Source of the DNA: Bacteroidales bacterium
Lineage (GTDB): Bacteria; Bacteroidota; Bacteroidia; Bacteroidales; UBA932
Length of the DNA: 64,000 bases
Assembly (NCBI GenBank): GCA_017619655.1
Contig: JAFZRV010000012.1
Location: forward strand, 2,988 to 66,987
Direction: 5' to 3'
Positions within the stretch are counted from its first letter, which is position 1; every line of letters starts with the position of its first letter. Below the pieces are notes generated by a model. The model made no database searches, had not been told where the DNA came from, and worked only from the letters and a program-made list of their open reading frames with translations. Made by a program: the position numbers and the translations under genes. This document shows, one piece after another, positions 1,262 to 61,906 of this stretch.

Positions 1262-1295
1262 ATTATTTATTTTCGACAAAGGTAATATATAATTA

Positions 1296-23288: not shown

Positions 23289-23362
23289 TGATTCCGTCGG
23301 GATTCGAACCCGAGACCCACAGCTTAGAAGGCTGTTGCTCTATCCAGCTGAGCTACGGAACC
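23289..23362 (-). tRNA. tRNA-Arg (anticodon TCT)
   Basis: The reverse complement gives acceptor GGTTCCG/CGGAATC, D arm GCTC AGCTGGATA GAGC, anticodon stem ACAGC/GCTGT with loop CTTCTAA, and T arm TCGGG TTCGAAT CCCGA. Confidence 0.9.
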
Positions 23363-35669: not shown

Positions 35670-35678
35670 TCGGAAGAA

Positions 35679-36524
35679 ATGAAACGGCTGTTACTGATCG
35701 CTTTGGCAGTTATGGCTTTTCTGGCGCCTGCAACCGCTCAGGAAAAGGGTGGCAAGACCGCGTTGCTGATGGTGCATTTCGGCACCAGCTACGACGAGAC
35801 GCGGATGAAGACCATCGACGCCGTCAATGCGAAGGTCTGCGAGGCTTTCCCGGAATACACTTTCCGGGAAGCCTGGACCTCGCGCATGATCATCCGCAAG
35901 CTGAAGGGACGTGGCATCGTGAAGGACACGCCGCTGGAGGCGCTGATGCGCCTGCGGGCGGATGGGTATACGCGCGTGCTGGTGCAGTCCACCACGCTGC
36001 TGGAGGGGGCCGAGATGGCTTCGCTGCGGCGTGATGTGGAGAGCCTGGCGCCTTTCTTCGACGAGATCCGGGTGGGGGAGCCGCTGCTCTATTCGGTGGA
36101 TGACTGCCGCAAGGTGGCGGAGATCCTGTTGCGGCGCCACGGCGACAGGGCCGATGCAAAGAAACACGCGCACGTGGTCTTCGTGGGTCACGGCACCTAT
36201 GCCCCGGCCAATGCCACCTACAGCCAGATGGAACATCTCTTCCAGCATCTGGGCGGTCCGCTTTTCCATGTCGCTACGATTGAAGGTTATCCCACGCTGG
36301 AGACGTTGCTGGCCGACCTGAAGGCCGCCAAGGCCCGCAAGGTGACGCTGGTTCCGATGCTGCTCGTGGCGGGCGACCACGCGACCAATGACATTTCCGG
36401 CGAGTGGAAAGAAGCCCTGGAAGCCGCGGGTCTTGAAGTGGAAGTCGTGCTGGAGGGCCTCGGACAGCTTCCTGAAATCCAGGACATGTACCTTGAGCAT
36501 ATCCGAAATGCCGCTGGCCGGTAA
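35679..36524 (+). CDS. cbiK: CbiK-type sirohydrochlorin cobaltochelatase homologue carrying a Sec signal peptide
   Basis: The CbiK-like core starts LLMVHFGTSYDE, with a second-half VFVGHGT histidine segment. The N-terminus MKRLLLIALAVMAFLAPATAQE looks like a cleavable signal peptide. Confidence 0.75.
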   Translation: MKRLLLIALAVMAFLAPATAQEKGGKTALLMVHFGTSYDETRMKTIDAVNAKVCEAFPEYTFREAWTSRMIIRKLKGRGIVKDTPLEALMRLRADGYTRVLVQSTTLLEGAEMASLRRDVESLAPFFDEIRVGEPLLYSVDDCRKVAEILLRRHGDRADAKKHAHVVFVGHGTYAPANATYSQMEHLFQHLGGPLFHVATIEGYPTLETLLADLKAAKARKVTLVPMLLVAGDHATNDISGEWKEALEAAGLEVEVVLEGLGQLPEIQDMYLEHIRNAAGR

Positions 36525-36573
36525 GCATACCGGGCCTCATACGGCTGTCCTTTGTAATAGCCGAGTTTTTTAT

Positions 36574-36581
36574 TATATTTG
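36574..36581 (+). promoter_or_regulatory. Bacteroidota -7 promoter box (TATATTTG) ahead of riboswitch 2
   Basis: TAnnTTTG match directly upstream of the riboswitch. Confidence 0.5.
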
Positions 36582-36587
36582 CAATGA

Positions 36588-36790
36588 TTTTGGTAATCGG
36601 GCGGCGGTAAGCCGCGCCGATGCAAGGGAACCCGGTGGAAATCCGGGGCTGTTCCTGCAGCTGTAATCCCCACGAAGGGTCTGCTTCCAAAACGCCACTG
36701 GGCGCTCCGCCATCCCCCGTCTGCCGGGCCGGATCGGAGCAAAATCCCGGGAAGGCGGAGCGGACCGGGGAGAGCCAGAAGACCTGCCAA
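36588..36790 (+). ncRNA. Cobalamin (B12) riboswitch 2
   Basis: Core caagggaacccggtggaaatccgggg...gcagctgtaa, B12 box gccactg at 36694..36700, gggaaggc, and closing gccagaagacctgcc identical to riboswitch 1. Confidence 0.85.
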
Positions 36791-36837
36791 GATTTGAATT
36801 TACGCGCGTTCAGGAACAAGCGAAGGCGGAAAAGGGA

Positions 36838-38991
36838 ATGAAACTCAAATGGCTTGTCGGGTGGGCACTCATGCTTCTCACCCCATCGTTGGCGGCACAG
36901 TCGTATCAGCAGGATACGATTCCGGAGATTGTTGTCACGGCGACCGGAACGACCCACCTGCTGAAGAACGTGCCCGTTCAGACGGAGGTCATTACCCGCA
37001 AGATGCTGGACAACTACGCCGGCCGCTCGCTGGAAGACATTCTGGGCGGACTGACCGCTTCGTTTGCGTTCAATGAGGATGACATGGGCTCGCACATGCA
37101 GCTCAATGGCCTGGGCAACAGCTATATCCTGATCCTGGTCGACGGCAAGCGCCTGCACGGAGACGTGGGCGGAGAGAACGACCTGGCCCTTATTGATCCG
37201 CAGAACATCGAAAAAATCGAGATCGTGAAGGGCGCTTCCTCCGCACTCTACGGCAGCGACGCCATCGCGGGCGTCATCAACATCATCACGCGCAAGCACC
37301 GGCAGGAAGGACTTCTGCTGGAGAATTCCACCCGTGGCGGTTCCTATTTCGATGTGCGTCAGCACGACGCCATCGGCTTGAAATACGGGAAGTTCAGTTC
37401 GCTGACGAACTTCCAGCTGCAGCATTCCGACGGCTGGCAGAACACGTCCGTGGAGCATACCACGGGCACGCAGGAGCCCGTTACGGACTCGCAGAACAAA
37501 ACCGTAAACCGGCATACGAACGCGCAGGTGGGCGAACAGCTTACCTTCACGCCGAACGACCGGCTCGAATTCTACGCCGGCGGCACCTGGTACTGGAAGC
37601 GCATCTACCGCCCCAACGGCAAATATGCGCAGTTCGATGTCCATACCTACGACCTGCAGTACCGCAACGCCTCGGCATCTGTGGGTGGCAAGTGGAAGGT
37701 GAACGCTACGGACGTGGTGACCCTCGACATCGACTGGAACAAGCACGCCTACCTCTACTATTTCACTGCCACGACGCTGGTGGAAGACTACGAAAAAAGC
37801 AAGGGAACCCTCTATTATCCCTATTATCCTTACTTGCCAAGTCAGACGGAACTGCAGAGCGACCAGCAGCGGACGATGGCCAGCCTCAAGGGCGTTTTCT
37901 CGCTGCCGGGCGAAAACCGCCTCAATACGGGTGCTGAATATCGTTTTGACTGGCTGAACGCGCCGAGCCGTGTGGTGGGCGGGAAGGTCAGCGACTGGAC
38001 CGCTGCCCTGTATGCCCAGGACGAGTGGCGGCACGACTTCGGGCGGAACCAGATCCAGCTGGCGGCCGGCGTACGGTTGACCTGGAACGGCCAGTTCGGC
38101 GTGAAAGTCACCCCGAAGGTCTCGGCCATGCTGGGCCTCGGGCTTCCCTGGCGTATCCGTGCCACCTGGAGCCAGGGTTTCAAGACACCCACGCCCAAGG
38201 AGCTCTATTACCGCTACGTCAAGCAGATGAGCGGCACGTATCTCTATCTGGGCAACACCGGACTGCGTCCGCAGACCAGCAATTATTTCTCGCTGGGCGG
38301 GGAATACACGCTTTCCGGATTGAGCGTCATCGTCACGGGCTATTACAACGTCGTCAAGGATATGATCACGCTCGTGACGATTCCCAACTATGAAGCGCCG
38401 GCCGAATACATCATCCAGTACGATCCCGTGAAAACCCGTCAGTACCAGAACGTCGACGACGCCCGGACGATGGGGGTGGACGTGAATGTGCGCTACAGTT
38501 TCCGCGACTGGGCCTTCGGACTGGGATACAGTTGGCTCGACACGGAGGCCAACCAGTATGACGCCACCCACGACCGGATGCGGCAGGTCATCATCGACGG
38601 GACGGCGCATCACAAGGGAAACTGTTTCGCCACCTGGAATCACCGCTTCTCGCCGGATTACCGGCTTGGCGCCGGCGTGTACGGCCGGATGTCTTCGACG
38701 CGTTATTACCAGGATGACGGAAACGGCAAGGGGTATCAGATATGGCGCATTTCTACCACCCACGACCTGGGACATTCCGAACGTACGACCTGGCGCATTG
38801 AAGCCGGCGTCGACAATATCTTCAACTATGTGGACCGTACTCCGCACGGGCTGCACCTGGGCACGACGACGCCCGGCACGACGGTCTATCTGGGCTTGAC
38901 GGTCCGTTTCAACCAGGGAAAGAAAGTGAAAGACAAATTCAATACAACTATCAATAACAATTATAATTCAAAGCAATATGAAGAAAACTAG
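36838..38991 (+). CDS. btuB: TonB-dependent receptor, B12-riboswitch controlled (BtuB-like), second copy
   Basis: Signal peptide, TonB-box-like IPEIVVTAT, plug (SYILILVDGKRLHGD), and a barrel with a terminal aromatic region. Confidence 0.75.
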   Translation: MKLKWLVGWALMLLTPSLAAQSYQQDTIPEIVVTATGTTHLLKNVPVQTEVITRKMLDNYAGRSLEDILGGLTASFAFNEDDMGSHMQLNGLGNSYILILVDGKRLHGDVGGENDLALIDPQNIEKIEIVKGASSALYGSDAIAGVINIITRKHRQEGLLLENSTRGGSYFDVRQHDAIGLKYGKFSSLTNFQLQHSDGWQNTSVEHTTGTQEPVTDSQNKTVNRHTNAQVGEQLTFTPNDRLEFYAGGTWYWKRIYRPNGKYAQFDVHTYDLQYRNASASVGGKWKVNATDVVTLDIDWNKHAYLYYFTATTLVEDYEKSKGTLYYPYYPYLPSQTELQSDQQRTMASLKGVFSLPGENRLNTGAEYRFDWLNAPSRVVGGKVSDWTAALYAQDEWRHDFGRNQIQLAAGVRLTWNGQFGVKVTPKVSAMLGLGLPWRIRATWSQGFKTPTPKELYYRYVKQMSGTYLYLGNTGLRPQTSNYFSLGGEYTLSGLSVIVTGYYNVVKDMITLVTIPNYEAPAEYIIQYDPVKTRQYQNVDDARTMGVDVNVRYSFRDWAFGLGYSWLDTEANQYDATHDRMRQVIIDGTAHHKGNCFATWNHRFSPDYRLGAGVYGRMSSTRYYQDDGNGKGYQIWRISTTHDLGHSERTTWRIEAGVDNIFNYVDRTPHGLHLGTTTPGTTVYLGLTVRFNQGKKVKDKFNTTINNNYNSKQYEEN

Positions 38992-40114
38992 ATTCATGGT
39001 CGCCGCACTGCTGGCGGTACTGGCGCTGGGTCTCGTGTCCTGCGATCCGTACAATGAGCAGTACAACTACAACGCCTACCAGCGGTCGGTGAACGAGACC
39101 GTCAAGTCCCAGAAGAAGAACGACAAGGTGATTCTGCTGGTCGCGTTCGGGTCCACCTGGCAGCAGGCTTTCGACGCTTTCGACGAGACCGTCGCCGCCT
39201 ACAAGAAGGCTTTTCCGTCCTATGACGTGTTCCTTTCCTTCTCTTCCGCCATCTGCATCAACCGTGCTGCAGCCGGTGAGAACGCCGCTGACGGCGCCGA
39301 GATCCGCAATTACTATGCTCCGCCGTTCTGGCTCACTGCATTCGCCCAGAAGGGAATCATGTATCGCGAGATCGTGATTCAGTCGCTCCAGGTGATTCCG
39401 GGCGAGGAGTACGGCCGCGTAATCAACTACATCAAGGACTTCGCCAACAATGCCAACGGCGACCTTGACGACGATTACCTGTCCAGCGTGATCCTGAAGC
39501 TTGGCGTTCCGCTTCTCCAAGACCCGGAGAAGGACGTCAATGACGTGGCTTCCGCGCTCCACAATCTTTACAAGAGCCAGGCAACGAACGACATTGTCGC
39601 ATTCATGGGCCATGGCAACCCGGATGAATACGATACCTACAAAGCCAATATCCGCTACACCCAGCTGGAAGAGGCCCTGCAGGCACTCAGCCCCCATTAT
39701 TTCGTAGGTACCGTCGACATGATGGAGAACTTCAAGCCGCATGTGTATGAGCGCATGGCAGAGGCAGGACTGAACACCGGCAACCGAAAAGTCTACCTGC
39801 ATCCGCTGATGTCCATCGACGGCGATCACGGCCATAACGACATGGCCGGCGACGACCTGCCCGAGAAGTTCGAGGGCAAGAGCTACACCTTCGCAGACCT
39901 GATGGCCGAAGCCAATGAAGAGGGTGAGGTCGAGGACTGCAGCTGGAAGGTTTTCTTCGGTGCAAACGGATCGGGCTTCACCTGCAACAATTCCACGATG
40001 ATCGAGAAGGGCCTGCTCGAACTCCCGACCATCCGGCAGATCTGGATGAACCACACCCAGAATGCAATCAACGGAGAACCGCTCGACTACTACCACTCCA
40101 AGAATCCGGAATAA
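38978..40114 (+). CDS. CbiK-fold lipoprotein (IhtB-like), probable surface tetrapyrrole/corrinoid-binding protein
   Basis: Lipobox LALGLVSC. CbiK-like halves are present (ILLVAFGSTWQQAFDAF and VAFMGHGNPDE). Its start overlaps the receptor gene's 3' end by 14 nt. Confidence 0.65.
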   Translation: MKKTRFMVAALLAVLALGLVSCDPYNEQYNYNAYQRSVNETVKSQKKNDKVILLVAFGSTWQQAFDAFDETVAAYKKAFPSYDVFLSFSSAICINRAAAGENAADGAEIRNYYAPPFWLTAFAQKGIMYREIVIQSLQVIPGEEYGRVINYIKDFANNANGDLDDDYLSSVILKLGVPLLQDPEKDVNDVASALHNLYKSQATNDIVAFMGHGNPDEYDTYKANIRYTQLEEALQALSPHYFVGTVDMMENFKPHVYERMAEAGLNTGNRKVYLHPLMSIDGDHGHNDMAGDDLPEKFEGKSYTFADLMAEANEEGEVEDCSWKVFFGANGSGFTCNNSTMIEKGLLELPTIRQIWMNHTQNAINGEPLDYYHSKNPE

Positions 40115-40153
40115 TCCCAGCAGTTTCTTCTGCGCAGTTTTTATTTAGTGTGT

Positions 40154-40196
40154 GTCCCGGCACCCGGCAAGGTGCCGGGACTTGTTTGGATTTTTG
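40154..40196 (+). terminator. Intrinsic terminator
   Basis: 11-bp perfect stem gtcccggcacc/ggtgccgggac followed by ttgtttggattttt. Confidence 0.75.
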
Positions 40197-40218
40197 AGGC
40201 ATGAGACCGAAAAAAGAG

Positions 40219-40226
40219 TATCTTTG
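40219..40226 (+). promoter_or_regulatory. Bacteroidota -7 promoter box (TATCTTTG) for the cob/cbi operon
   Basis: TAnnTTTG match 7 nt upstream of the ATG at 40233. This would give a nearly leaderless transcript. Confidence 0.45.
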
Positions 40227-40232
40227 TTAGAT

Positions 40233-40925
40233 ATGAATCGAATCTACACCCGGACAGGCGACGGCGGTACCACCGGCATCCACGGCGGCGCCCGCGTGCC
40301 GAAAGACGACCCCCGCATCGAGGCCAACGGTACCCTTGACGAACTGAATTGCCAGATCGGCATCGTCCGCTCGATGCTGAGATGCCCGGTCAAGCCGGGC
40401 ATGACGGAAGAAGTCAAGCCGGGCATGACGGAAAGCGAGCGCAGCGACGGGCGGTATTTGTCGAGCGAGCATTTTTCTGCGAGCGAGACAAATACCGGAG
40501 GAGCGGAGCGAGCGTCGTATGATGATATCTTACACGCTATACAGAAGAACCTGATGACCGTCATGAGCCAGGTGGCGACGCCGGCGGCGGAGCGCAGCAA
40601 GAACCCCAATCCATTGCCCGAAAACCTCGTGGCCAATTGCGAAGCCACGATGGACGCCCTCACGGCCGAAGCAGGACCCAGCCGCCATTTCATCCTTCCC
40701 GGCGGAACCCCGCTGGCCGCCCGGTTGCAGCTGGCCCGCGCCGTCTGCCGCCGCGCCGAACGCCGCCTCTGGACCCTGCACCGGCAGGATCCGATTCCCG
40801 AAGCCATCTTGCAATACATCAACCGCCTCTCCGACCTGCTCTTTGTCCTGGCCCGCTGCGAACTCGCCCGGCAGGACTGGCCCGAAGAACGCTGGCAGGC
40901 CTTCTCTTATAAGAACCAGAAATGA
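40233..40925 (+). CDS. PduO-type ATP:cob(I)alamin adenosyltransferase with a roughly 40-aa internal insertion
   Basis: N-terminus MNRIYTRTGDGGTTGIHGGARVPKDDPRIEANGTLDELN and C-terminal FILPGGTPLAARLQLARAVCRRAER are canonical. The segment RCPVKPGMTEEVKPGMTESERSDGRYLSSEHFSASETNTGGAERASYDD is extra. Confidence 0.85.
   Translation: MNRIYTRTGDGGTTGIHGGARVPKDDPRIEANGTLDELNCQIGIVRSMLRCPVKPGMTEEVKPGMTESERSDGRYLSSEHFSASETNTGGAERASYDDILHAIQKNLMTVMSQVATPAAERSKNPNPLPENLVANCEATMDALTAEAGPSRHFILPGGTPLAARLQLARAVCRRAERRLWTLHRQDPIPEAILQYINRLSDLLFVLARCELARQDWPEERWQAFSYKNQK
40389..40436 (+). repeat. Tandem 24-nt duplication inside the adenosyltransferase gene
   Basis: gtcaagccgggcatgacggaa occurs twice head to tail (40389..40412 and 40413..40436), encoding VKPGMTEE/VKPGMTES. 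The first unit also forms the hairpin atgcccgg-tcaag-ccgggcat with upstream bases. Confidence 0.85.
40444..40513 (-). repeat. Palindromic repeat family, copy D (inverted orientation, inside the adenosyltransferase CDS)
   Basis: The reverse complement gctcgctccgctcctccggtatttgtctcgctcgcagaaaaatgctcgctcgacaaataccgcccgtcgc aligns over 70 nt with copies A and B. It has an 11-bp perfect inverted repeat cggtatttgtc/gacaaataccg. Confidence 0.7.
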
Positions 40926-42418
40926 AAGCCCCGCTCCATCCCGTGATGCTCGCCGGAACCGGCAGTGACGTCGGCAAGAGCGTGCTGGCCACCGCCCTGT
41001 GCCGCATCTTCAAGCAGGACGGCTATGCTCCCGCACCGTTCAAGGCCCAGAACATGGCCTTGAACTCCTTCGCCACGCCCGACGGTCTGGAGATCGGCCG
41101 TGCCCAGGCCGTGCAGGCCGAAGCGGCCGGCGTGCCCTGCCATACGGACATGAATCCGCTGCTGCTCAAGCCCCAGAGCGACCACACCTCGCAGGTGGTG
41201 CTGAATGGCCGCCCCATCGGCAACCGCGACGCCTACGACTATTTCCGGAAGGAGGGAAGGACTGAACTCCGCGAAGCCGTATATGCCGCTTATGACCGGC
41301 TTGCGGCACGCTTCAATCCCATCGTGATGGAAGGTGCCGGCAGCCTGGCTGAAATCAACCTGCGCGACTCCGACCTCGTCAACGTGCCGATGGCGATGCA
41401 CGCAGGCGCCGACATCCTCCTGGTCGGCGACATCGACCGCGGCGGGGTGTTCGCAAGCGTGTACGGCTCCATCATGCTGCTGCCGCCCGAAGAACGCAAG
41501 TATGTGAAGGGCATTTTGATCAATAAGTTCCGCGGCGACCTCCGGCTTTTCGAAGAAGGCAGGAAAATGCTCGAAGACCTGTGCGGCATCCCGGTGCTGG
41601 GCGTCGTGCCGTACTACCACGACATCCATATCGAAGAAGAGGATTCCGTGGCGCTGGCGGCCAAGTCTGCCGCCGCGCAGCGGGGCAAGGTCAACGTCGC
41701 GGTGGTCTTGCTGCGCCATATCAGCAACTTTACGGACTTCAATGCGCTGGAGCGCGATCCGCGCGTCCATCTGTTCTACAGCAACAACGTGGATGAGATT
41801 GCCAAAGCCGATGTGATCATCCTTCCAGGCAGCAAGAGCACGATCGATGATCTGTATGAACTGCGGCGCAACGGCGTGGCGCAGGCCATCCTGCGGGCCC
41901 GCCGCGAAGGCGCCTCGGTGCTGGGCATCTGCGGCGGCTACCAGATGATGGGCGTCCGGATCCGGGACCCGCACCACGTGGAGGGTGACTTGGAAGTGCT
42001 TCCGGGCCTGGGCCTGCTGCCGATGACCACGGAGATGCTGGGCGACAAGGTTACCCGGCAAGTCCGTTTCCAGGCCTTTGATGGCGCTGGAGAGACGATG
42101 GAAGGGTATGAGATCCATATGGGAAAGACCCTGCCGGTAGAGGGTCGTGCGTTCCGGCCGCTGAACCGGCTGGAAGACGGTCAGGAAGACGGCTGCATCG
42201 TGGATGAGAAGTGCATGGGCAGCTACATCCACGGCATCCTCGACAACCCGGCTTTCATCGACCGGCTGCTGGCGCCGCACGCCGCGAAGCTGACCGCTGC
42301 GGCGGCTTCTTTCGACTACCACGCCTTCAAGGAAGAACAATACGACAAACTGGCTGCCCACGTGCGGCAATATGTCGACATTCCGTTGTTGTACAAGATC
42401 TTGAGTGAACAACAATGA
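40922..42418 (+). CDS. cobQ: Cobyric acid synthase
   Basis: 498 aa with N-terminal GTGSDVGKS and a C-terminal GATase domain (GICGGYQMMG). Confidence 0.9.
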   Translation: MKAPLHPVMLAGTGSDVGKSVLATALCRIFKQDGYAPAPFKAQNMALNSFATPDGLEIGRAQAVQAEAAGVPCHTDMNPLLLKPQSDHTSQVVLNGRPIGNRDAYDYFRKEGRTELREAVYAAYDRLAARFNPIVMEGAGSLAEINLRDSDLVNVPMAMHAGADILLVGDIDRGGVFASVYGSIMLLPPEERKYVKGILINKFRGDLRLFEEGRKMLEDLCGIPVLGVVPYYHDIHIEEEDSVALAAKSAAAQRGKVNVAVVLLRHISNFTDFNALERDPRVHLFYSNNVDEIAKADVIILPGSKSTIDDLYELRRNGVAQAILRARREGASVLGICGGYQMMGVRIRDPHHVEGDLEVLPGLGLLPMTTEMLGDKVTRQVRFQAFDGAGETMEGYEIHMGKTLPVEGRAFRPLNRLEDGQEDGCIVDEKCMGSYIHGILDNPAFIDRLLAPHAAKLTAAAASFDYHAFKEEQYDKLAAHVRQYVDIPLLYKILSEQQ

Positions 42419-43458
42419 TACAGGGCCACGGTGACGACAGATATCGTTTTGACCGGGAAATCCGGGCGGACTTCAGCTCCAATGTCTATGCGCATGTGGA
42501 TCTGGAACCGCTGAAGGCGCATCTTCGAGCGCGCCTTGACGACATCGGCCGTTATCCTGAGCCGGAGCCTTACTCGTTGGAGAAGGCATTGGCGAAGCGA
42601 CTGGGCATCGATCCTGCTGCTGTCTGTGTCACCGCCGGCGCCACCGAAGCCATCTATCTCATCGCCCACGCCTTCAAGGGCAGTCATTCGACAATTCTTG
42701 CGCCGACGTTCAGTGAGTACGCTGATGCTTGCCGACTATACGCTCACTCCGTGGCTCCGGTTTCCGTCTTGCTCCCGAAAAAAGGTCGCTGCGCCGAAAA
42801 CCGCCCGCCACTTCATTCGCTTTTCTGGCTCTGCAATCCGAATAATCCGACGGGGACGGTCATTCCGAAGGAACAACTCGTTCGGGCCATCGAAGATAAT
42901 CCTGAGACGATTTTCGTCATCGACCAGTCGTATGGATTCTTTACCCAAGAAACCCTCCTGACGGCGAAAGAAGCCATTCGATACCCGAATGTGATCCAAC
43001 TCCACTCCATGACCAAACGCTACGCCATGCCCGGCCTGCGGCTGGGCTACATAACGGCCCATCCGCAACTGATCGAAAAGATCCGCAGCGTCCGCATGCC
43101 ATGGAGCGTCAACGCCCTGGCTATCGCGGCTGGCCTGTACCTGACACAACACCCAGATACGGCACGCATCGACCTGACGGCACTACTGACTGAAACACAG
43201 CGCCTTCGCGACCGGCTGAATGCCATCCCCGGCTTGACGGCCGAGCCCACCCAGACCCATTTCTTCCTCTGCCGTCTGGAGAAAGGCCGCGCCGCAGACC
43301 TCAAGCAGAGGCTGGCGGAAGAATACGGCATCCTCATTCGCGACGCTTCCAACTTTGAAGGACTCGACGAAGGCTGCTTCCGGATCGCCACGCAGACCCC
43401 TGAAGAAAACGACAGGCTGGTTGAAGCTATTAGAAACATACTGAAAGTCAATGTGTAG
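42415..43458 (+). CDS. cobD: Threonine-phosphate decarboxylase (class I/II aminotransferase fold)
   Basis: 347 aa with CNPNNPTG and a PLP-lysine region SMTKRYAMPGLRLGY. It sits between cobQ and cbiB. Confidence 0.8.
   Translation: MIQGHGDDRYRFDREIRADFSSNVYAHVDLEPLKAHLRARLDDIGRYPEPEPYSLEKALAKRLGIDPAAVCVTAGATEAIYLIAHAFKGSHSTILAPTFSEYADACRLYAHSVAPVSVLLPKKGRCAENRPPLHSLFWLCNPNNPTGTVIPKEQLVRAIEDNPETIFVIDQSYGFFTQETLLTAKEAIRYPNVIQLHSMTKRYAMPGLRLGYITAHPQLIEKIRSVRMPWSVNALAIAAGLYLTQHPDTARIDLTALLTETQRLRDRLNAIPGLTAEPTQTHFFLCRLEKGRAADLKQRLAEEYGILIRDASNFEGLDEGCFRIATQTPEENDRLVEAIRNILKVNV
42742..42811 (+). repeat. Palindromic repeat family, copy A (inside the cobD CDS)
   Basis: gctcactccgtggctccggtttccgtcttgctcccgaaaaaaggtcgctgcgccgaaaaccgcccgccac. 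By my hand alignment 59 of 70 positions are identical to copy B. It is translated as AHSVAPVSVLLPKKGRCAENRPP. Confidence 0.7.
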
Positions 43459-44395
43459 GGCCCTCTCCATACTCGCCGGTTGGCTGCTCGACCTGATCTT
43501 CGGAGATCCGGCGTGGCTGCCGCATCCGGTCGTGGGCTTCGGCAAGCTGATCGCCGCAGGGGAGAAACATTGGAACAAAGGGGAACACCGCCGCCGCAAG
43601 GGCGCCTGGCTCGCCATTGTGCTGGTACTGGGGACTTTTGTGTTGACGTTCGCATTGCTTTACGCTTGCCGGATGCTCGGTGAAACGCTCGGCATCGGCT
43701 TGTCGCTCAAGAGAATCATAGAAGCCATCCTGGTTTTTTTCTGCCTGGCCGGCACGACATTGATCCGCGAAGTGCGTGAAGTCTTCCGCGCCGTGGACCG
43801 TTCCGTCGAAGAGGGGAGAGAGCGCGTGGCCCGCATCGTGGGCCGCGACACGTCCGATCTTTCGGCACAGGAAATCCGCACGGCTGCGCTGGAGACGCTG
43901 GCCGAGAACCTGAACGACGGCGTGATAGCGCCGCTCTTCTGGCTGGCCCTGCTGGGCGTCCCCGGAATGATGGCTTACAAGATGATCAACACCCTCGACT
44001 CGATGATCGGCTACCGCAGCGAGCGATATGTCGATTTCGGCCGCTTTGCCGCCCGGATGGACGACGTGGCGGGCTGGGTTCCCGCGCGCCTGACAGCCTT
44101 CCTGATGCTGCTGGTGGCGGGACGCCTGGGTAAGCTGGCTTGGGTCCACCAGAACGGCCGAAAGCACCTGAGCCCCAATTCCGGCCATCCCGAGGCCGCC
44201 CTGGCCGCCATCCTCGACTGCCGTTTCGGCGGTCCCCACAACTATTTCGGACAGGAGGTCTGGAAGCCGTACATCGGTGAAAACGACCGCCCCCTGACCC
44301 ATTCTGACTTGCAGCGCGCTGTCCGCATCAGTCGCGTGTCTGAAGCGCTGATGGTTCTGATGGTCGCAGTCCTGAATCTAATCCCGTGTATATAA
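43451..44395 (+). CDS. cbiB: Adenosylcobinamide-phosphate synthase
   Basis: 314 aa membrane protein. LLDLIFGDPAWLPHPVVGFG and NDGVIAPLFW are typical CbiB/CobD segments. Confidence 0.9.
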   Translation: MCRALSILAGWLLDLIFGDPAWLPHPVVGFGKLIAAGEKHWNKGEHRRRKGAWLAIVLVLGTFVLTFALLYACRMLGETLGIGLSLKRIIEAILVFFCLAGTTLIREVREVFRAVDRSVEEGRERVARIVGRDTSDLSAQEIRTAALETLAENLNDGVIAPLFWLALLGVPGMMAYKMINTLDSMIGYRSERYVDFGRFAARMDDVAGWVPARLTAFLMLLVAGRLGKLAWVHQNGRKHLSPNSGHPEAALAAILDCRFGGPHNYFGQEVWKPYIGENDRPLTHSDLQRAVRISRVSEALMVLMVAVLNLIPCI

Positions 44396-44396
44396 C

Positions 44397-45806
44397 ATGA
44401 GCAATCCAAAAATCATCGTAGCCGGCATCGGGCCGGGAAGCGCGGGCGACATGACGCCAGCCGTGCTCGAGGCCGTCCGGCGCTCCGATGTGATCATCGG
44501 TTATCAATACTATTTCCAATTCGTGACGCCGTATCTGTCGCCCGACACGCTGTGCGTGGATACCGGGATGAAGAATGAGCGCGAGCGGGCCGAGGAGGCC
44601 TTTGCGTGGGCGGAGCAGGGCAAGACCGTGTGCGTGGTGAGTTCGGGTGATGCGGGCATCTATGGCATGGCGCCGCTCATCTGGGAGATGAAACGGGAGC
44701 GGGGGAGCGATGTGGAGATCGAGGTGCTGCCCGGCATCAGCGCCTTTCAGAAGGCTGCTTCGCTGCTGGGCGCGCCCATCGGCCACGACCTTTGCCTCAT
44801 CTCGCTGTCCGACCTGATGACGCCCTGGGAAACGATCGAGCGTCGCATCCGCGCCGCCGCCGTGGCCGATTTCGTGACGGCGGTCTACAACCCGAAGAGC
44901 TACGGACGTTATTGGCAGCTGTACCGCCTGCAGGAGATTTTCCTGCAGCACCGCGACCCGTCCACGCCGGTCGGCTATGTCTGCCAGGCCGGACGCGCCG
45001 ACGAGCAGGTCACGCTCACGACGCTGGGCGCTTTCGATCCGGAGCAGGTCGACATGTTCACCGTGGTGCTCATCGGGAATTCCCAGTCCTATGCCTACGA
45101 GGGCAAGTTCATCACGCCCCGCGGCTATTTCCGCGAGAACCGCAGCGAAGAAGCGAAAGGGGTGGGTCAGGAGATCATGATCGAGAGCTTCCGCACGATA
45201 GAGAAAGAACTGCGGCATCCGGATATCCCGCTCGGAAAAAAGTGGCCCCTGCTGCACGCCATCCATACAACTGCCGATTTCGATATGGAGAACATCCTGC
45301 AGGTCGACGACGGGGCAGTCGAAATCCTCTATGCCGGTTTCACGGAAGGCCGCATCAAGACCATCGTGACCGACGTGACGATGGTGGCTGCGGGCATCCG
45401 CAAGGGTGCCCTGCAGCGGCTCGGCGTCGAGGTCAAGTGCTATCTGTCCGATCCGCGGACGGCCGAACTGGCGGCGGAAAAGGGGATTACCCGCACCCAG
45501 GCCGGCATCCGGCTGGCCGTGGAGGAGCATCCCGACGCACTCTATGCCTTTGGCAACGCACCTACCGCGCTGATGGAACTCTGCACGCTCGTCCGCCGGG
45601 AAAAAGCCCGTCCCGCCGGCATCATCGCCGCTCCGGTCGGCTTTGTTCATGTGCGGGAAAGTAAACACATGGCCAAGCCTTTCCGAGAAATACCTAAACT
45701 GATAGTTGAGGGTAGAAAAGGCGGCAGCAACCTGGCCGCCACCCTCGTCAATTCCATCCTCTGCTTCAACGATGCGGAGGCACTTAAACCCGGTCGCGAT
45801 GTCTAG
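44397..45806 (+). CDS. cbiH: Fusion: cobalt-factor III/precorrin-3B C17-methyltransferase (CbiH) + precorrin-8X methylmutase (CbiC)
   Basis: The N-terminal half has the tetrapyrrole methylase motifs (GIGPGS, SSGDAGIYGMA, LISLSDLMTPWE). The C-terminal half has CbiC/CobH motifs (HAIHTTADF, FGNAPTAL, PVGFV). Confidence 0.85.
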   Translation: MSNPKIIVAGIGPGSAGDMTPAVLEAVRRSDVIIGYQYYFQFVTPYLSPDTLCVDTGMKNERERAEEAFAWAEQGKTVCVVSSGDAGIYGMAPLIWEMKRERGSDVEIEVLPGISAFQKAASLLGAPIGHDLCLISLSDLMTPWETIERRIRAAAVADFVTAVYNPKSYGRYWQLYRLQEIFLQHRDPSTPVGYVCQAGRADEQVTLTTLGAFDPEQVDMFTVVLIGNSQSYAYEGKFITPRGYFRENRSEEAKGVGQEIMIESFRTIEKELRHPDIPLGKKWPLLHAIHTTADFDMENILQVDDGAVEILYAGFTEGRIKTIVTDVTMVAAGIRKGALQRLGVEVKCYLSDPRTAELAAEKGITRTQAGIRLAVEEHPDALYAFGNAPTALMELCTLVRREKARPAGIIAAPVGFVHVRESKHMAKPFREIPKLIVEGRKGGSNLAATLVNSILCFNDAEALKPGRDV

Positions 45807-46986
45807 ACAACACTTCACTGTCATCGGCATGACGGACGACCGGTCGGTCTGGTTTCCGCCCGAAGTGCGGGCGGTCATTGCGTCGGGCCGTGTGTTCTCG
45901 GGTGGGAAGCGCCATCACGAAATCGTGGCGCCGCTGCTGCCGGAAGGCGCCGCGTGGATCGATATCACCGTGCCGCTCGAAGCGGTCTTCGACCAATATG
46001 CGGGACATGCGGAAGTGGTGGTTTTCGCCTCGGGCGATCCGCTTTTTTTCGGTTTCGCCAATACCCTGCGGCGGGAACTGCCTGACGCGGAGATCACGGT
46101 CTTTCCCTCGTTCAATTCCTTGCAGTTGCTGGCCCATCGGATCCTGTTGCCCTATGCCGACATGCGCACCGTATCGTTGACCGGCCGGCCCTGGGAGGCG
46201 TTTGACGAAGCTTTGATCCGGGGTGAACGGCTTATCGGCGTGCTGACCGACCGCCAGAAGACGCCCGCCCTCATCGCCCGGCGCATGCTTGAATACGGCT
46301 ACGACAACTACCGGATAACCGTAGGGGAGTGCCTGGGCAACCGCGACACCGAGCGGGTTCGCACTTTGTCGCTGGCTGAGGCGACGGCGGCCGAATTCGC
46401 TTTTCCCAACTGTCTCATCCTTGCGCAAACGGTTGCGAAAGTCCATCCTTTCGGCCTTCCCGAGCAGGATTTCGCCCTGCTGGACGGCCGCGTGAACATG
46501 ATTACAAAGATGCCCATCAGACTGCTGACCCTCAGTCAGTTGGATCTGGCGGGGCGGCGCTCTTTCTGGGATATCGGCTTCTGCACCGGCTCCGTTTCCA
46601 TCGAAGCCCGCCTCCGCTTCCCGCAGCTGCAGCTGACCGCCTTTGAAATCCGCGAAGCCGGCCGCGAACTCATGGCGCAGAATGCCCGCAAGTTCGGCGC
46701 TCCCGGCATCGACTTCCATATCGGTGACTTCCTCGAGGCTGACCTGTCCGCATTGCCCGCTCCTGACGCCGTTTTTATCGGCGGACACGGCGGCCGTCTG
46801 GGAGACTTTCTGCAGCGCATCGACGGCGTTCTGCTGCCCGGCGGCCGCATCGTCTTCAACGCGGTCAGCGAGCAGAGTCAGGCCCTTTTCCGCGCTGCCG
46901 TCGCCGCCGTCGGCCGCCGCATCACGAACGAAATGCATGTTTCGGTCGATTCCTTCAACCCCATTAACATCATGACCGCCGAATGA
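45799..46986 (+). CDS. cbiE: Fusion: precorrin-6Y C5,15-methyltransferase (decarboxylating), CbiE + CbiT
   Basis: Start MSRQHFTVIGM overlaps the upstream stop. The CbiE half has VVVFASGDPLFFG. The CbiT half has a SAM-methyltransferase fold (FWDIGFCTGSVSIE). Confidence 0.85.
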   Translation: MSRQHFTVIGMTDDRSVWFPPEVRAVIASGRVFSGGKRHHEIVAPLLPEGAAWIDITVPLEAVFDQYAGHAEVVVFASGDPLFFGFANTLRRELPDAEITVFPSFNSLQLLAHRILLPYADMRTVSLTGRPWEAFDEALIRGERLIGVLTDRQKTPALIARRMLEYGYDNYRITVGECLGNRDTERVRTLSLAEATAAEFAFPNCLILAQTVAKVHPFGLPEQDFALLDGRVNMITKMPIRLLTLSQLDLAGRRSFWDIGFCTGSVSIEARLRFPQLQLTAFEIREAGRELMAQNARKFGAPGIDFHIGDFLEADLSALPAPDAVFIGGHGGRLGDFLQRIDGVLLPGGRIVFNAVSEQSQALFRAAVAAVGRRITNEMHVSVDSFNPINIMTAE

Positions 46987-48914
46987 GTAGAGTAGCCATT
47001 ATAGTAGTATCTGAATCATCCCTGCCTATCGCTCAACGCATAGCGGCTTGCGTAGGCGAGGCTCGCTCCGCGGCTCTGGTATCCGTCTCGCTCCCGAAAA
47101 AAGGTCGCTTCACCGGATACCACCCGCCGCTAGGCGAGCCTGTGGCAGTTTATACGAAAAAAGAGATTGGATCCTATGGTAAGTTCTTGAAAGACAACTG
47201 GCAGGAGCTTGAGGCCATCGTCTTTATCGGCGCCCTCGGCATCTGTACCCGCAGTATCGCCCCGGCCCTGAAGAATAAATATGAGGATCCCGCCGTCGTC
47301 TGTATCGACAGTACCGGCCAATACGTCATTCCCGTCGTTTCCGGCCACATCGGCGGTGCCAACGACCTGGCTCGCCATATTGCTGAATCTATTGGTGCCC
47401 AAGCTATTGTAACGACGCAGAGCGACAACGAAGGCCTCTGGGCCCTCGATACCCTCGCACGCCAGTACGGCTGGCAGGTAGAGGCTAAGCCGGCCGAAAT
47501 GAACCGCGCCATCTTCGCCTTCGTCGAGAAAAAGCCCACGGCACTCCTGCTCGAAATCCGCGACGCCGGAACCGACTACCTCGAGCGGACCAAACCAGAA
47601 CATGTCCAAATCTTTTATCGCCGCGAAGACCTGAATGCCGGCGATTTCGCCCTGGTGATCGCCGTCACGCCCTCCGTCATGCCCGACGCCACCCTCGGCC
47701 ACGACCGGGGGTTGATCCGGCATCTCAACCTTCCCGATGACATGCCTTTGCTTGTATTCAACCCGCCGGTGCTCCACCTGGGCTTCGGCTGTCGGAAGCA
47801 ATGTGACCCGGCGGGAATCCCCGAAGCCATCGAGGCGAAACTCCGCGAGGCGGGCCTGTCGCCGAAATCCATCGCGACGGTCGGAACCGTCGAACTGAAG
47901 AAAGACGAAGCCCTGCTGCAGGCCCTGCTGGCCCAGTGGCCCCAGGCGCAGGCGGCCGTCTATCCCGCGGAAACCCTGGCGGCGATCGACGTGCCGAACC
48001 CGTCGGAGAAGGCGCTCGCCGCTACCGGGAGCGCCGGCGTGGCCGAAGCGGCCGCGATCGCCGGCGCCCAGGGCGGCCCTCTGCGCATTGAGAAGCAGAA
48101 GGGCCGGCTCTCCGAAGGCAACGATTTTACCTTTGCGGTGGCGCAGGGCGCCGCGTCGCTGCGCGCCGGACACATCGAGATTGTCGGCGCGGGTCCTGGA
48201 GACCCCGAACTGGTGTCCGTGCGCGGCAAACGCTTCCTCGAGCAAGCCGACCTCATCCTCTACGCCGGCAGCCTGGTGCCGGTCGAATTAACGCAGTACG
48301 CCAAGCACGGATGTACGGTGCGCAGTTCCGCCTCGATGGACCTGGAGGAGCAGTTCGCCCTGATGAAAGAATTCTATGACAAAGGCTTGCTGGTGGTGCG
48401 GCTGCATACCGGGGACCCCTGCCTCTACGGCGCCATCCAGGAACAGATGGCCTTCTTCGACCGCTACGGGATGGACTATCACATCACGCCGGGCATCTCG
48501 GCGTTCCAGGCAGCCGCCGCGGCGCTCCGCTCGCAGTTCACCATCCCCGAAAAGGTGCAGACCATCATCCTCACGCGCGGCGAAGGGCGCACGCCCATGC
48601 CGGAGCGGGAACAGCTGCACAAGCTCGCGCAGTCGCAGAGCACCATGTGCATCTACCTCAGCGCGGGCATCGTGGAAGAAGTGCAGGCCGAACTGCTGCA
48701 GGCCTATCCGCCTGAAACCCCTGTGGCCGCCTGCTACAAGCTGACCTGGAAGGAAGAACGCATCTACCGCGGCGTGCTTCGCGACCTGGCGAAGATCGTG
48801 CGGGACAACAACCTGACGCTCACCACGCTGCTCGTGGTGGGTGACGCCATCGGCAACCGCGAGGGCCTCTCGCGGCTCTATGCCCACGAATTCAAACACC
48901 TTTTCCGGAAATGA
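46983..48914 (+). CDS. cbiG: Fusion: cobalt-precorrin-5A hydrolase (CbiG) + cobalt-precorrin-4 C11-methyltransferase (CbiF)
   Basis: The CbiG part has GICTRSIAPALKNKYEDPAVVCIDSTGQYVIPVVSGHIGGAN. The CbiF part has VGAGPGDPELVSVRG, HTGDPCLYGA and TPGISAF. Confidence 0.85.
   Translation: MSRVAIIVVSESSLPIAQRIAACVGEARSAALVSVSLPKKGRFTGYHPPLGEPVAVYTKKEIGSYGKFLKDNWQELEAIVFIGALGICTRSIAPALKNKYEDPAVVCIDSTGQYVIPVVSGHIGGANDLARHIAESIGAQAIVTTQSDNEGLWALDTLARQYGWQVEAKPAEMNRAIFAFVEKKPTALLLEIRDAGTDYLERTKPEHVQIFYRREDLNAGDFALVIAVTPSVMPDATLGHDRGLIRHLNLPDDMPLLVFNPPVLHLGFGCRKQCDPAGIPEAIEAKLREAGLSPKSIATVGTVELKKDEALLQALLAQWPQAQAAVYPAETLAAIDVPNPSEKALAATGSAGVAEAAAIAGAQGGPLRIEKQKGRLSEGNDFTFAVAQGAASLRAGHIEIVGAGPGDPELVSVRGKRFLEQADLILYAGSLVPVELTQYAKHGCTVRSSASMDLEEQFALMKEFYDKGLLVVRLHTGDPCLYGAIQEQMAFFDRYGMDYHITPGISAFQAAAAALRSQFTIPEKVQTIILTRGEGRTPMPEREQLHKLAQSQSTMCIYLSAGIVEEVQAELLQAYPPETPVAACYKLTWKEERIYRGVLRDLAKIVRDNNLTLTTLLVVGDAIGNREGLSRLYAHEFKHLFRK
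47061..47130 (+). repeat. Palindromic repeat family, copy B (inside the cbiG N-terminus, flanked by an 8-bp direct repeat)
   Basis: gctcgctccgcggctctggtatccgtctcgctcccgaaaaaaggtcgcttcaccggataccacccgccgc is flanked by taggcgag at 47053..47060 and 47131..47138. Element plus one repeat is 78 nt, or 26 codons. Confidence 0.75.
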
Positions 48915-50719
48915 TCCTGATTCTCGGCGGTACGACGGAAGGACGCCTCGCGGTGCGGGTGATCGATGCGGCGGGTACGCCCTACTGGTACTCCACGCGC
49001 GGCGAACTGCAGCAGATCGAGTGCAAGCACGGCACGCACATCACCGGTGCGCTCGATGCTGCGACGATGCAAACTTTTTGCGAGGAAAACGAGGTTCGGC
49101 TGCTGGTCGACGCGGCGCATCCGTTTGCCACGGAACTGCATGGCACGGTCGCGGCTGTCGCCGCGTCGCTTGACCTTCCGGTCGTGCGCGTCGAACGTGT
49201 GTATGAGATTCCGGGTCAAGACCGGAATGACGGCGGGATGACCATTCGGTGGTGTACCGATTATGATGATGCCGTCCGGCAACTGGAAGCCGACGGCATC
49301 ACCCGGCTGTTGGCCCTGACGGGCGTCCAGACCATCGCCAAGCTGCGCGACTATTGGACGCGGCATGACTGCTGGTTTCGCATCCTGCACCGGGACGAAT
49401 CGCTGGAGAAGGCTGCTCAGCAGGATTTTCCGGCGGACCGGCTGGTTTATTACGAAGATGAGGACGAGGCGGCGCTCATCGCGCGCCTGCAGCCGCAAGC
49501 CATCCTGACGAAGGAAAGCGGCGAATCGGGCGGTTTCCCGCAGAAAGTCGCTGCGGCGCAGTCGGCGGGTATTCCGGTCTATGCGGTCCGACGGCCGGCA
49601 CTGCCTGCCGGTTTTGAAACGGTTACGGGCGAATTCGGCTTGCGCAAGGCCATCGAGCGGCTGGTGCCGGGCTTCTTTCCGTTGCGCAGCGGCTTTACGA
49701 CCGGCGCCTGCGCTACGGCGGCCTCCAAGGCTGCGTTGTTGGCGCTTTTGGGTCGCGATGTGGGGGAGAAGGTCGATGTGTTATTTCCCGATGGCGAAGC
49801 CCTCGCTCTGCCCGTTAAAGATGTCAAGGCGGAGCGCGTTGACCGGGCGACGGCGACCGTCGTCAAGGACGGCGGCGATGATCCGGACGTGACCGACGGC
49901 TGTTCGGTCGTGGCCACCGTCGCTTTCAGCGACAGCCCCGGCATCCATTTCTTTCGGGGAGAAGGTGTCGGCTGCGTGACGCTGCCGGGGCTCGGTTTGC
50001 CCGTCGGCGGCCCTGCCATCAACCGTGTGCCGCGGCAGATGATGGAACAGAACCTGTCCGCTCTCTACGACGGCGGTCTCGACATCATGATCTCTGTGCC
50101 AGGCGGCCGGGAGCTGGCGCGTCGCACTTTCAACGCCAAGGTAGGTGTCATCGGCGGTATCTCCATCATCGGATCCTCCGGCATTGTTCGCCCGTTCTCG
50201 AACGAAGCCTTCGTCGAAGCCATCCGGAAAGAGATCGAAGTGGCCGTGGCTGTCGGCGTGGAGCAACTGGTCATCAATTCGGGCGCCAAGAGCGAGGCGT
50301 TCCTCAGAGCCCGTTTCCCTGCGCTGCCGCTGCAAGCCTTTGTCCATTACGGCAATTTCATCGGCGAGACGCTGAAGATCGCGGCCGAGCAGCAGGTTCC
50401 TCGGGTGACGATGGGCATCATGCTTGGCAAGGCCGTCAAGTTGGCGGAAGGCCATCTCGATACGCATAGCAAGACTGTCGTGATGAACAAGCCCTTCCTG
50501 AAGGATGTGGCTGCCGATGCGGGCTGCTCGCCGGCGGCCGCCGAGGCTATCGACCGCCTGACCCTGGCCCGCGAGCTTTGGAAAGGGCTTTCGGAAGAAG
50601 ATGCGAGACGATTCTTCACGGCCATCCTCGATCGTTGCTACGCTGCCTGTGAAACGGTTTATCCAGCTTCGCTCACCATCCTGCTGTTGGATGAAGACGG
50701 CAACGTCTTTGAAGTTTAA
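48911..50719 (+). CDS. cbiJ: Fusion: cobalt-precorrin-6A reductase (CbiJ) + cobalt-precorrin-5B C1-methyltransferase (CbiD)
   Basis: The N-terminus MILILGGTTEGR with LVDAAHPFA marks CbiJ/CobK. The C-terminal half LRSGFTTGACATAASKAA with GGISIIGSSGIVRPFS marks CbiD. Confidence 0.85.
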   Translation: MILILGGTTEGRLAVRVIDAAGTPYWYSTRGELQQIECKHGTHITGALDAATMQTFCEENEVRLLVDAAHPFATELHGTVAAVAASLDLPVVRVERVYEIPGQDRNDGGMTIRWCTDYDDAVRQLEADGITRLLALTGVQTIAKLRDYWTRHDCWFRILHRDESLEKAAQQDFPADRLVYYEDEDEAALIARLQPQAILTKESGESGGFPQKVAAAQSAGIPVYAVRRPALPAGFETVTGEFGLRKAIERLVPGFFPLRSGFTTGACATAASKAALLALLGRDVGEKVDVLFPDGEALALPVKDVKAERVDRATATVVKDGGDDPDVTDGCSVVATVAFSDSPGIHFFRGEGVGCVTLPGLGLPVGGPAINRVPRQMMEQNLSALYDGGLDIMISVPGGRELARRTFNAKVGVIGGISIIGSSGIVRPFSNEAFVEAIRKEIEVAVAVGVEQLVINSGAKSEAFLRARFPALPLQAFVHYGNFIGETLKIAAEQQVPRVTMGIMLGKAVKLAEGHLDTHSKTVVMNKPFLKDVAADAGCSPAAAEAIDRLTLARELWKGLSEEDARRFFTAILDRCYAACETVYPASLTILLLDEDGNVFEV

Positions 50720-61646: not shown

Positions 61647-61808
61647 ATCGGAAATGGTTTTGATGAATTGTCTGTTTCCAATCCACAAATATAAGAAAAC
61701 GCATTGAGAAAAGCAAGACTGACAATTTGTCATAAAAATATCATTGGTCGCTTTTTTGATTGTCCATCGGCGGGCTTTGCAGAAATGGACGAGGATGCTT
61801 AGGGCGTC

Positions 61809-61874
61809 GCAGCGGGTGGTGTTCGGCGCAGCGACCTTTTTTCGGGAGCAAGACGAACACCAGAGCAGCAGAGC
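61809..61874 (-). repeat. Palindromic repeat family, copy C (intergenic, upstream of clpB)
   Basis: The reverse complement gctctgctgctctggtgttcgtcttgctcccgaaaaaaggtcgctgcgccgaacaccacccgctgc aligns with copies A and B. The inner stem ggtgttcg/cgaacacc is perfect. Confidence 0.7.
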
Positions 61875-61906
61875 CCGCGAACAAGAAATAAAAAGGAGGA
61901 TAACAT

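Follow-up and report, generated by a model that had tools for sequence, protein, structure and literature searches.

A 64-kb window of contig JAFZRV010000012.1 (positions 2,988 to 66,987; assembly GCA_017619655.1, from a Bacteroidales bacterium) carries, near the start of its cbiG gene, a 70-nt hairpin-forming element that lies between two exact copies of an 8-nt word. We hold with moderate confidence that this element, here called copy B, is a palindromic repeat resembling the repetitive extragenic palindromes (REPs) and Rickettsia palindromic elements (RPEs) of other bacteria, tolerated as a disordered loop of CbiG, and that it is not a transposable element of the miniature inverted-repeat type (MITE) spread by cut-and-paste transposition. 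The family to which it belongs is of a kind already known, that is, REP/RPE-like palindromes that invade coding sequence; the family itself appears to be previously undescribed and is found in uncultured rumen Bacteroidales. A literature search for a described in-frame palindromic element of Bacteroidales found nothing specific. The features of copy B and its host gene, in coordinates of the 64-kb window, are as follows.

46983-48914, plus strand: host open reading frame (ORF) of 643 aa, with the Pfam domains CbiG_N, CbiG_mid and CbiG_C fused to TP_methylase (tetrapyrrole methylase)
47053-47060, plus strand: upstream octamer TAGGCGAG, the first of the two flanking direct repeats
47061-47131, plus strand: copy B, a hairpin repeat of subfamily 1, with the apical loop GCTCCCGAAAAAAGGTCGC at 47090-47108
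47070-47130, plus strand: outer stem of copy B
47077-47122, plus strand: inner hairpin of copy B
47131-47138, plus strand: downstream octamer TAGGCGAG

The octamer has no other occurrence on either strand of the window, and the 70 nt between its two copies (47061-47130) read gctcgctccgcggctctggtatccgtctcgctcccgaaaaaaggtcgcttcaccggataccacccgccgc. Together, the element and one repeat make 78 nt, or 26 codons, and their deletion joins ...RIAACVGE to PVAVYTKKE in frame. Insert-free CbiG relatives read comparably at the same point (AKRVAAELRSVIYTKNE in L042/L045, AGKIARDLPEAAIYTKAE in L054; L numbers denote the loci collected for comparison), and the CbiG N-terminus left after removal would therefore be of normal length. 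The bracketing of the element by the octamer, read directly from the sequence, and the in-frame removal that yields a normal N-terminus had both been described in a first-pass annotation of this DNA, and both hold. The insert corresponds to CbiG residues 27-52. An AlphaFold model of CbiG, built with a 20-sequence alignment, places it between a helix (residues 11-32) and a strand (residues 54-58), and the confidence score (predicted local distance difference test) is 33-35 for residues 31-50, which are predicted to be unstructured; the model thus fits an insert that is tolerated as a disordered loop. The alignment to the solved CbiG structure 3EEQ starts only at residue 71, such that the insert could not be mapped onto it. 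The best CbiG relatives have 61-63% identity over their full length in a protein database, and 70% amino-acid identity in a metagenome scan.

Copy B is one of four copies of the family in the window, three of which are in frame inside genes, with the fourth being intergenic. The other three are listed here.

40432-40521, minus strand: subfamily-2 copy with the loop GCTCGCAGAAAAATGCTCGC, placed antisense and in frame within the ORF (40152-40925) of a PduO-type adenosyltransferase
42741-42822, plus strand: copy A, a member of subfamily 1, lying in frame within the ORF (42415-43458) of a CobD-like aminotransferase
61798-61884, minus strand: intergenic subfamily-1 copy, with a minus-strand peptidase-C1 gene (60420-61733) on one side and clpB, on the plus strand from 61907, on the other

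Two subfamilies are told apart by the apical loop, GCTCCCGAAAAAAGGTCGC versus GCTCGCAGAAAAATGCTCGC. A scan of 185,579 species genomes found the 19-nt apical loop at 22 loci, 20 of them from six rumen Bacteroidales metagenome-assembled genomes (MAGs) whose hosts are goat, buffalo, red deer and cattle; one of the six, RGIG3317 (L001; JAFSOA01), matches 11 kb of the window at 85-93% identity and has 10 exact-loop matches. The sequence examined below consists of the window and 79 loci (about 0.46 Mb of loci, roughly 0.5 Mb overall), in which nhmmer, with a hidden Markov model built from the copies, gave 42 matches, 31-33 of them non-redundant. The non-redundant set of 31 comprises the four copies from the window, with the others coming from rumen Bacteroidales MAGs and metagenomes. 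About one third of the copies retrieved with the loop search lie inside long ORFs, and two thirds lie outside. An additional in-frame copy occurs in cbiD (L025/L029 CbiD), and the pduO site is also filled in L020 (subfamily 1) and L029 (subfamily 2). Since related genomes differ in the presence or absence of copies (copy A is absent from L020, and the L025/L029 cbiD copy is absent from the window), the family has evidently proliferated. No Rfam family matches the element, either at gathering thresholds over the whole window or at E up to 10 over 46950-47250, and no viral contig matches the loop 19-mer.

A similar loop was also met outside the rumen. Marine Woeseiaceae MAGs (Gammaproteobacteria) have a repeat whose loop and inner stem, GGTATCCATCTTGCTCCCGAAAAAAGGTCGC...GATGGATACC, are almost identical to those of the family (L016 1541-1589 and 4478-4526; L004 1347-1377). 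We estimate that about four chance matches of the 19-mer are expected in 596 Gb; nonetheless, the common stem and hairpin context of the Woeseiaceae copies suggest more than chance. One of these copies is located about 280 nt upstream of an ORF (157-1263, minus strand) that, read by eye, we take to be IS110-family transposase-like.

All copies fold as one long hairpin. The repeat is 70-85 nt long, or about 85-95 nt as a whole unit, with a central hairpin of about 60 nt. In copy B, GCGGC (47070-74) pairs with GCCGC (47126-30) to form the outer stem, 47077-47085 (TGGTATCCG) pairs with 47114-47122 (CGGATACCA) to form the inner hairpin, and two mini-stems of 2 bp each lie within the 28-nt apical loop (47086-47113). 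In the internal loop, the conserved bases are TCT on the 5' side and, on the other, CCC (47123-25), with which CCACCC (47120-25) ends; read on the minus strand, CCACCC becomes GGGTGG, located at the foot of the inner stem on its 5' side and partly overlapping that stem. Throughout the family it is the unpaired bases that are conserved, namely the A-rich apical loop of 25-28 nt, the 5' TCT and the 3' CCACCC, the last being nearly invariant over 33 copies (variants CGCCC and CATCC). The outer and inner stems are variable, with complementarity kept by Watson-Crick double changes. When the 33 copies were aligned against a fixed 18-pair structure, 87.7% of cells were paired, versus 31-46% in slid controls, and none of 500 shuffles attained the observed pairing values; 12 of the 18 pairs have changed on both sides, with 81 double-change cells versus three one-sided ones, and there are hardly any G-U pairs. 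Of the four window copies, copy A folds no better than its shuffles (z +0.47), and the other three do (z -2.3 to -3.1). Because G-U intermediates are almost absent, and because copies occur in both orientations relative to genes, we read the structure as a DNA hairpin that may form on either strand, and not as an RNA structure.

Beyond the outer stem, most copies begin on the 5' side with CGCTCGCT(T/C)C, and the counterpart on the 3' side is T(T/A)CGCTCGCT. This end motif (CGCTCGCT / T(T/A)CGCT) flanks both sides in direct orientation and travels with the element; the arms of the element are not themselves palindromes. The element can be read through because it has next to no stop codons: in 10 of 33 copies, all six frames are open, versus 0.8% of shuffles. 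The consensus is likewise open in all six frames, yet each orientation of the coding copies uses one frame, which reads ...VSV(S/L)LP(K/E)K... in plus-oriented copies (A and B of the window; L025) and ...EHFSASE... / ...SDLFSGAR... in minus-oriented copies (the 40.4-kb copy of the window; the cbiG relatives).

The position of copy B in CbiG, which is filled in a large part of this clade, appears to be a recurrent landing site, at which we see the opposite orientation, tandem copies, truncated remnants and other hairpins. Nine relatives (eight metagenome loci and the protein P0003) have the same element at this position in minus orientation: L025, L028, L029 (a tandem pair), L038 (a tandem pair), L039, L040, L041, L044 and P0003. 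Further relatives have another small hairpin repeat, encoding MPGQAGHD or IPGQAGND, and L023 and L062 have a third repeat. The subfamily-1 copy of L038 occupies the place of copy B in the opposite orientation, and the flanks are common to both (left GGCTTGCG[C/T]AG, right GCGAGCC.GT); the identity between the window and L038 rises from 44% to 65% once the window core is inverted. Similarly, L002 and L018 have the element in opposite orientations between the same 15-bp inverted flanks, with outer flanks that are roughly 95% identical by eye. We set aside assembly artefacts as the source of the orientation flips, since the inverted flanks, at 15 bp or less, are below usual assembly k-mers.

These comparisons bear directly on the octamers. 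The element itself ends in CTCGC, to which the GCGAG of the octamer is reverse-complementary, and AGGCTCGC at 47059-47066 pairs with GCGAGCCT at 47134-47141, such that the downstream octamer complements the 5' end of the element; for these reasons the octamer repeat is not independent of the element. The downstream GCGAGCC also occurs at the 3' junction of the copy that L038 has in the opposite orientation, and is thus homologous to the end of a minus-oriented element. Overall, TAGGCGAG...TAGGCGAG looks like a pair of minus-type end motifs around a plus-oriented core.

One way to arrive at this arrangement, which we consider unlikely as a full account, is in-place inversion of a resident minus-oriented copy through recombination or replication template-switching between nested inverted repeats, with no new insertion and with the octamer pair as a by-product of the junctions. 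The oppositely oriented element in L038, at the same cbiG position and between shared flanks, is consistent with this idea, as are the clear in-place flip between L002 and L018, the minus-type end motifs around copy B and the pairing of the downstream octamer with the 5' end of copy B. However, a simple flip creates no duplication, and about 15 extra nucleotides at the junctions, GCGAGGCTCGC and CTAG, need explaining. Moreover, the CbiG of L038 is only 62% identical, and two separate insertions at a favoured site would be just as likely. Lastly, none of 33 copies is chimeric, with the outer part in one orientation and the loop in the other.

The first-pass annotation had taken the octamer as the signature of a target-site duplication. 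We compared 28 nt on each side of the 31 non-redundant copies. Direct repeats of at least 8 nt flank five of them; in four, the repeated word is the family motif CGCTCGCT, and copy B alone (1/31) has a copy-specific repeat. A single case among 31 is probably not far from chance expectation, because in a cross-copy control a non-family 8-mer was common to unrelated 28-nt 5' and 3' flanks in 18 of 930 pairs (1.9%, a figure that is probably inflated by orthologous flanks). The octamer is unusual for abutting the element, and not for occurring twice: 1.87 occurrences of an 8-mer are expected in 64 kb, and 58 of 100 shuffles reach two. Copy A and a copy in L011 (5422-5512), at unrelated sites, have their imperfect ends, CGCTCACT...CATTCGCT, and their outer stem in common, and nothing is repeated outside those ends; at the pduO site, the copies of the window, of L020 and of L029 also have no duplication at their ends. 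Flanks that are specific to a copy tend to be inverted: such inverted flanks of at least 8 nt are found at four of the 31 copies (15 nt in L002, 11 in L001, 9 in L039 and 8 at copy B), versus 11 of the 930 control pairs. We conclude that the octamer is not the insertion scar of the family, and that a duplication is unsupported as a family trait. Indeed, the other copies consistently lack a flanking duplication of their own, the pattern under which the first-pass annotation proposed to regard the octamer pair as a coincidence.

Comparisons of filled and unfilled sites lead in the same direction. The empty site that the first-pass annotation predicted for cbiG, GCTTGCGTAGGCGAGCCTGTGGCA, is absent from all 79 loci with up to 4 mismatches allowed, and none of six filled/unfilled comparisons, listed below, gave a clean empty site; replacements or internal deletions were found instead.

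Copy A in the window versus L020 (79% identical): 82 nt in the window are replaced by 40 unrelated nt
The 61.8-kb copy in the window versus RGIG3317 (L001; 89-93% identical): a different, larger hairpin is at the site
cbiG in L041 versus L068/L065, with nearly identical flanks: a 60-nt difference bounded by CG
cbiG in L044 versus L046: a 51-nt difference bounded by CGGA
L017 versus L005: a further internal deletion
C-terminus of cbiD, filled in L025/L029, versus the window: the 'empty' site of the window has GCTTCGCTCACC, identical to the 3' end of the element

In both cbiG pairs the shorter allele retains the outer ends of the element, GCGTAGCTGCGG...AGCAGCGGAGCG, encoding 'EQRS'; hence, the shorter alleles are internal deletions of the hairpin at microhomologies of 2-4 nt, and not excisions. 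Longer remnants of the element are kept at the cbiD C-terminus by L063 and L067. The larger palindrome of RGIG3317 (L001 1560-1760, compared with 61760-61880 of the window) has a 19-bp perfect stem, GGGATATTGCTCTGAAACC / GGTTTCAGAGCAATATCCC.

That copy B is a MITE, mobilised by a DDE transposase whose gene lies elsewhere and inserted into TAGGCGAG in cbiG with duplication of 8 bp, is in our estimation somewhat less probable still than a pure inversion. An exact 8-mer does abut both ends of the 70-nt element, and the boundaries given by its closest copy (L020 2290-2360, 95.8%, with similarity that spans 47061 to 47131) agree to within 1 nt. In-frame excision yields a normal CbiG N-terminus, family copies are present in some genomes and absent from others, and the putative target, GCGTAG joined to GCGAGCC, resembles the joined ends of an older copy and may be a preferred target. 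Nonetheless, all non-redundant copies except copy B lack a copy-specific direct repeat, including two independent copies of one subtype with sharp ends (copy A and its counterpart in L011) and those at the pduO site. Furthermore, the stems covary and the loops are conserved, whereas DDE-type terminal inverted repeats conserve terminal sequence instead; the terminal motifs are direct, not inverted, in most copies; and neither a transposase nor an empty site was found in the window and the 79 loci. No parent insertion sequence (IS) sharing the ends of the element was found in the same sequence either, the search being a tblastn with RayT and IS200 TnpA queries. The MITE model, with its target-site duplication, fails its defining tests at the family level. 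A true 8-bp duplication may nevertheless have arisen at copy B alone, for which the nearest CbiG relative is the one at 70% amino-acid identity. The proposal in the first-pass annotation that the family is or was mobile and MITE-like stands in part: the family is dispersed and has proliferated, as presence/absence differences indicate, but with no family-wide duplication and no empty site found, its identity as a DDE-type MITE is not supported.

We propose that the element, as a REP/RPE-like repeat, persists in coding sequence where the extra 20-30 residues can occupy a permissive loop, which in CbiG is the disordered linker that joins helix one to strand two. The octamer pair would most likely have arisen when a plus-oriented core was placed between the minus-type ends (GCGTAG ... 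GCGAGCC) of an older copy. Either nested palindromes allowed an inversion or a template switch, or a new copy re-inserted into a remnant that served as a 'landing pad'; re-insertion into a remnant could make a true duplication. The family may spread through a single-stranded hairpin intermediate handled by an HUH/Y1 enzyme similar to the REP-associated tyrosine transposases (RAYTs). The HUH/Y1 single-strand route makes no target duplication, and a single guide recognising both cleavage sites would explain the direct end motifs on both sides of the hairpin.

Several observations weigh against this account. No RAYT, IS200-type or other transposase was found in the window and the 79 loci (about 0.5 Mb), although the search, limited to tblastn with E. 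coli RayT and IS200 TnpA queries, was a weak test. The ORFs between paired copies in L013, judged by eye, are presumably PNPOx-like and ComF-like, and neither is transposase-like. The unit exceeds the 20-40 nt of canonical REPs, its apical loop is far longer than the classic 2-5 nt, and the flanking motifs are direct, in place of an inverted 'double foot'. In addition, the copies are related by descent, such that shuffle statistics overstate their independence, and some of the 'replacement' comparisons are between genomes that are only 79% identical. Finally, the boundaries set by L020 leave AGGCGAG abutting both ends of copy B, exactly as a 7-8-bp duplication would.

A bolder version of the same idea, and a long shot in our judgement, is that the hairpins insert non-randomly, and that fixed landing pads within coding sequence, built from the hairpins' own end motifs (GCGTAG...GCGAGCC; GCTTCGCTC), are where they home, flip and displace one another. 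Particular surface loops of B12 enzymes (the CbiG N-terminus, the CbiD C-terminus, PduO and CobD) would then be continually rewritten by a site-directed single-strand mechanism as yet undescribed in Bacteroidales, possibly involving a RAYT-like or another hairpin-recognising enzyme.

Two further explanations seem to us very improbable. The first, a programmed intragenic invertible segment with which a site-specific recombinase recodes or switches CbiG and other genes, draws on the facts that invertible DNA is common in Bacteroidales, that both orientations are known at orthologous sites, that short inverted repeats flank the element and that both strands are largely stop-free, but the flips are seen between species-level genomes and not within a population, flipping the window copy between its 8-bp arms would, as read by eye, create an in-frame TGA (CCGGTGAAG), there is no adjacent recombinase gene, and the family has the dispersed distribution of a repeat, with most copies apparently outside genes. 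The second, a functional RNA structure (an mRNA stabiliser, a terminator or a regulatory element) under selection in the transcript, and not a proliferating DNA, could appeal to the strong covariation, to the several intergenic copies located directly after stop codons and to the effect of REP-type elements on mRNA stability (PMC3733652), but is at odds with the occurrence of both orientations relative to host genes, even at the same site, with the scarcity of G-U pairs and one-sided changes, which points to a hairpin of both-strand DNA, with the lack of any Rfam match even at E up to 10, and with the one third of copies that lie within unrelated coding sequences.

The C-terminus of CbiD is a second hotspot (50650-50680 in the window, VYP|ASLTILLL), with the large hairpin at L025 6703-6787 and L029 6752-6833, and a small 'MPG' repeat in L023, L024, L032, L035, L040 and L078. 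Small repeats of this type belong to a second, shorter hairpin family that is also in frame, ATGCCCGG-5nt-CCGGGCAT or ATTCCGGG...CCGGAAT. It occurs in the window at 40382-40430 (two tandem units, beside the 40.4-kb copy) and at 49208-49228, two matches versus 0.065 expected in shuffles, with 25 more in the loci. In the PduO-type gene the encoded peptide is 'KPGMTE', and in the fusion of CbiJ and CbiD it is 'IPGQDRND'; relatives have 'MPGQAGHD' or 'IPGQAGND', with up to five tandem units in CbiG. At two unrelated loci, a small 'CGTCATGCC(C/G)GGCTTGAC' hairpin adjoins the 3' motif of the large element.

Window 40432-40521 with 40380-40430: junction of large and small hairpins
L017 5672-5800: junction of large and small hairpins

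This adjacency suggests either a composite unit or a shared target. RGIG3317 has a copy (L001 4933-5023) between two convergent genes where the window (55021 / 58593) has 3.5 kb of extra genes; thus, the element marks an indel or synteny breakpoint. Compared with 34320-45751 of the window, the cobalamin gene cluster of L020 is rearranged, with blocks inverted and transposed. The window also includes two cobalamin riboswitches (RF00174; 26085-26280 and 36574-36805, with scores of 94.6 and 91.6 bits), located upstream of the gene blocks for transport and biosynthesis, and tRNA genes at 9512-9585 and 23289-23362.

Copy B and its relatives add a Bacteroidales example to the short list of palindromic repeats inside bacterial protein genes, which comprises RPEs and some REPs. 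We consider it most interesting that particular enzyme loops are used again and again and that orientation flips occur at orthologous sites: the same loops have been re-occupied, inverted and trimmed across a rumen clade, which amounts to a natural experiment on hairpin-driven variation in protein length. For annotation, such inserts account for unusual stretches of low complexity and for gene calls that are cut short in the cobalamin genes of rumen MAGs. We also caution that a single tidy flanking repeat is insufficient to call a target-site duplication.

Among known systems, the intragenic invertons of Bacteroidales resemble the family in being short coding segments that are bounded by inverted repeats and found both ways round. 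However, it is between genomes that the orientation of the family differs, the family is a multicopy dispersed repeat, and there is no nearby invertase. MITEs such as Correia elements and the enterobacterial repetitive intergenic consensus (ERIC) have a similar size range, are palindromic overall and non-autonomous, and are able to sit in genes, but the family has neither their defined target-site duplications (TA for Correia) nor their terminal inverted repeats, which are conserved and match those of a parent IS; the stems of the family covary instead of being conserved.

The likeness to REPs, and to the REP doublets known as REPINs, is closer. In both cases an imperfect palindrome is dispersed, its stem variation is compensated, and there is no target-site duplication; the family also seems to lie mostly between genes, as REPs do. 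REPs are defined by a GT[AG]G tetranucleotide located 0-2 nt 5' of the hairpin foot (PMC6006769), and by that definition the family has a tetranucleotide of this type, GTGG, at the 5' foot of its hairpin. Occasional in-frame copies in ORFs are a further likeness; in-frame REPs in genes are documented (PMC6006769; PMC3733652), as are in-frame RPEs (PMC10969869). RAYT subclasses 2.4 and 2.6 have been reported in Bacteroidetes (PMC6006769, PMC3733652). By contrast, the family unit is 85-95 nt with a structured apical loop of 25-28 nt, whereas REPs are 20-40 nt with loops of 2-5 nt; the unit is not a doublet of two REPs, as a REPIN is, and its flanking motifs are direct repeats; no RAYT gene is linked to the family (tblastn, window and 79 loci); and coding occupancy, at about one third, is much higher.

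A dedicated transposase is not known for RPEs (PMC10969869, PMC3733652). Like the family described here, RPEs are small palindromes that lie in frame in unrelated metabolic genes, where the peptide is added compatibly with folding. They differ in belonging to another phylum, in having a probably unrelated sequence, and in being about 100-150 bp and CGTC-tagged. Homology between the two is unlikely, given the host phylum and base composition. A further difference is that, in the rumen Bacteroidales, the same protein positions have been re-occupied by several repeat families, in both orientations.

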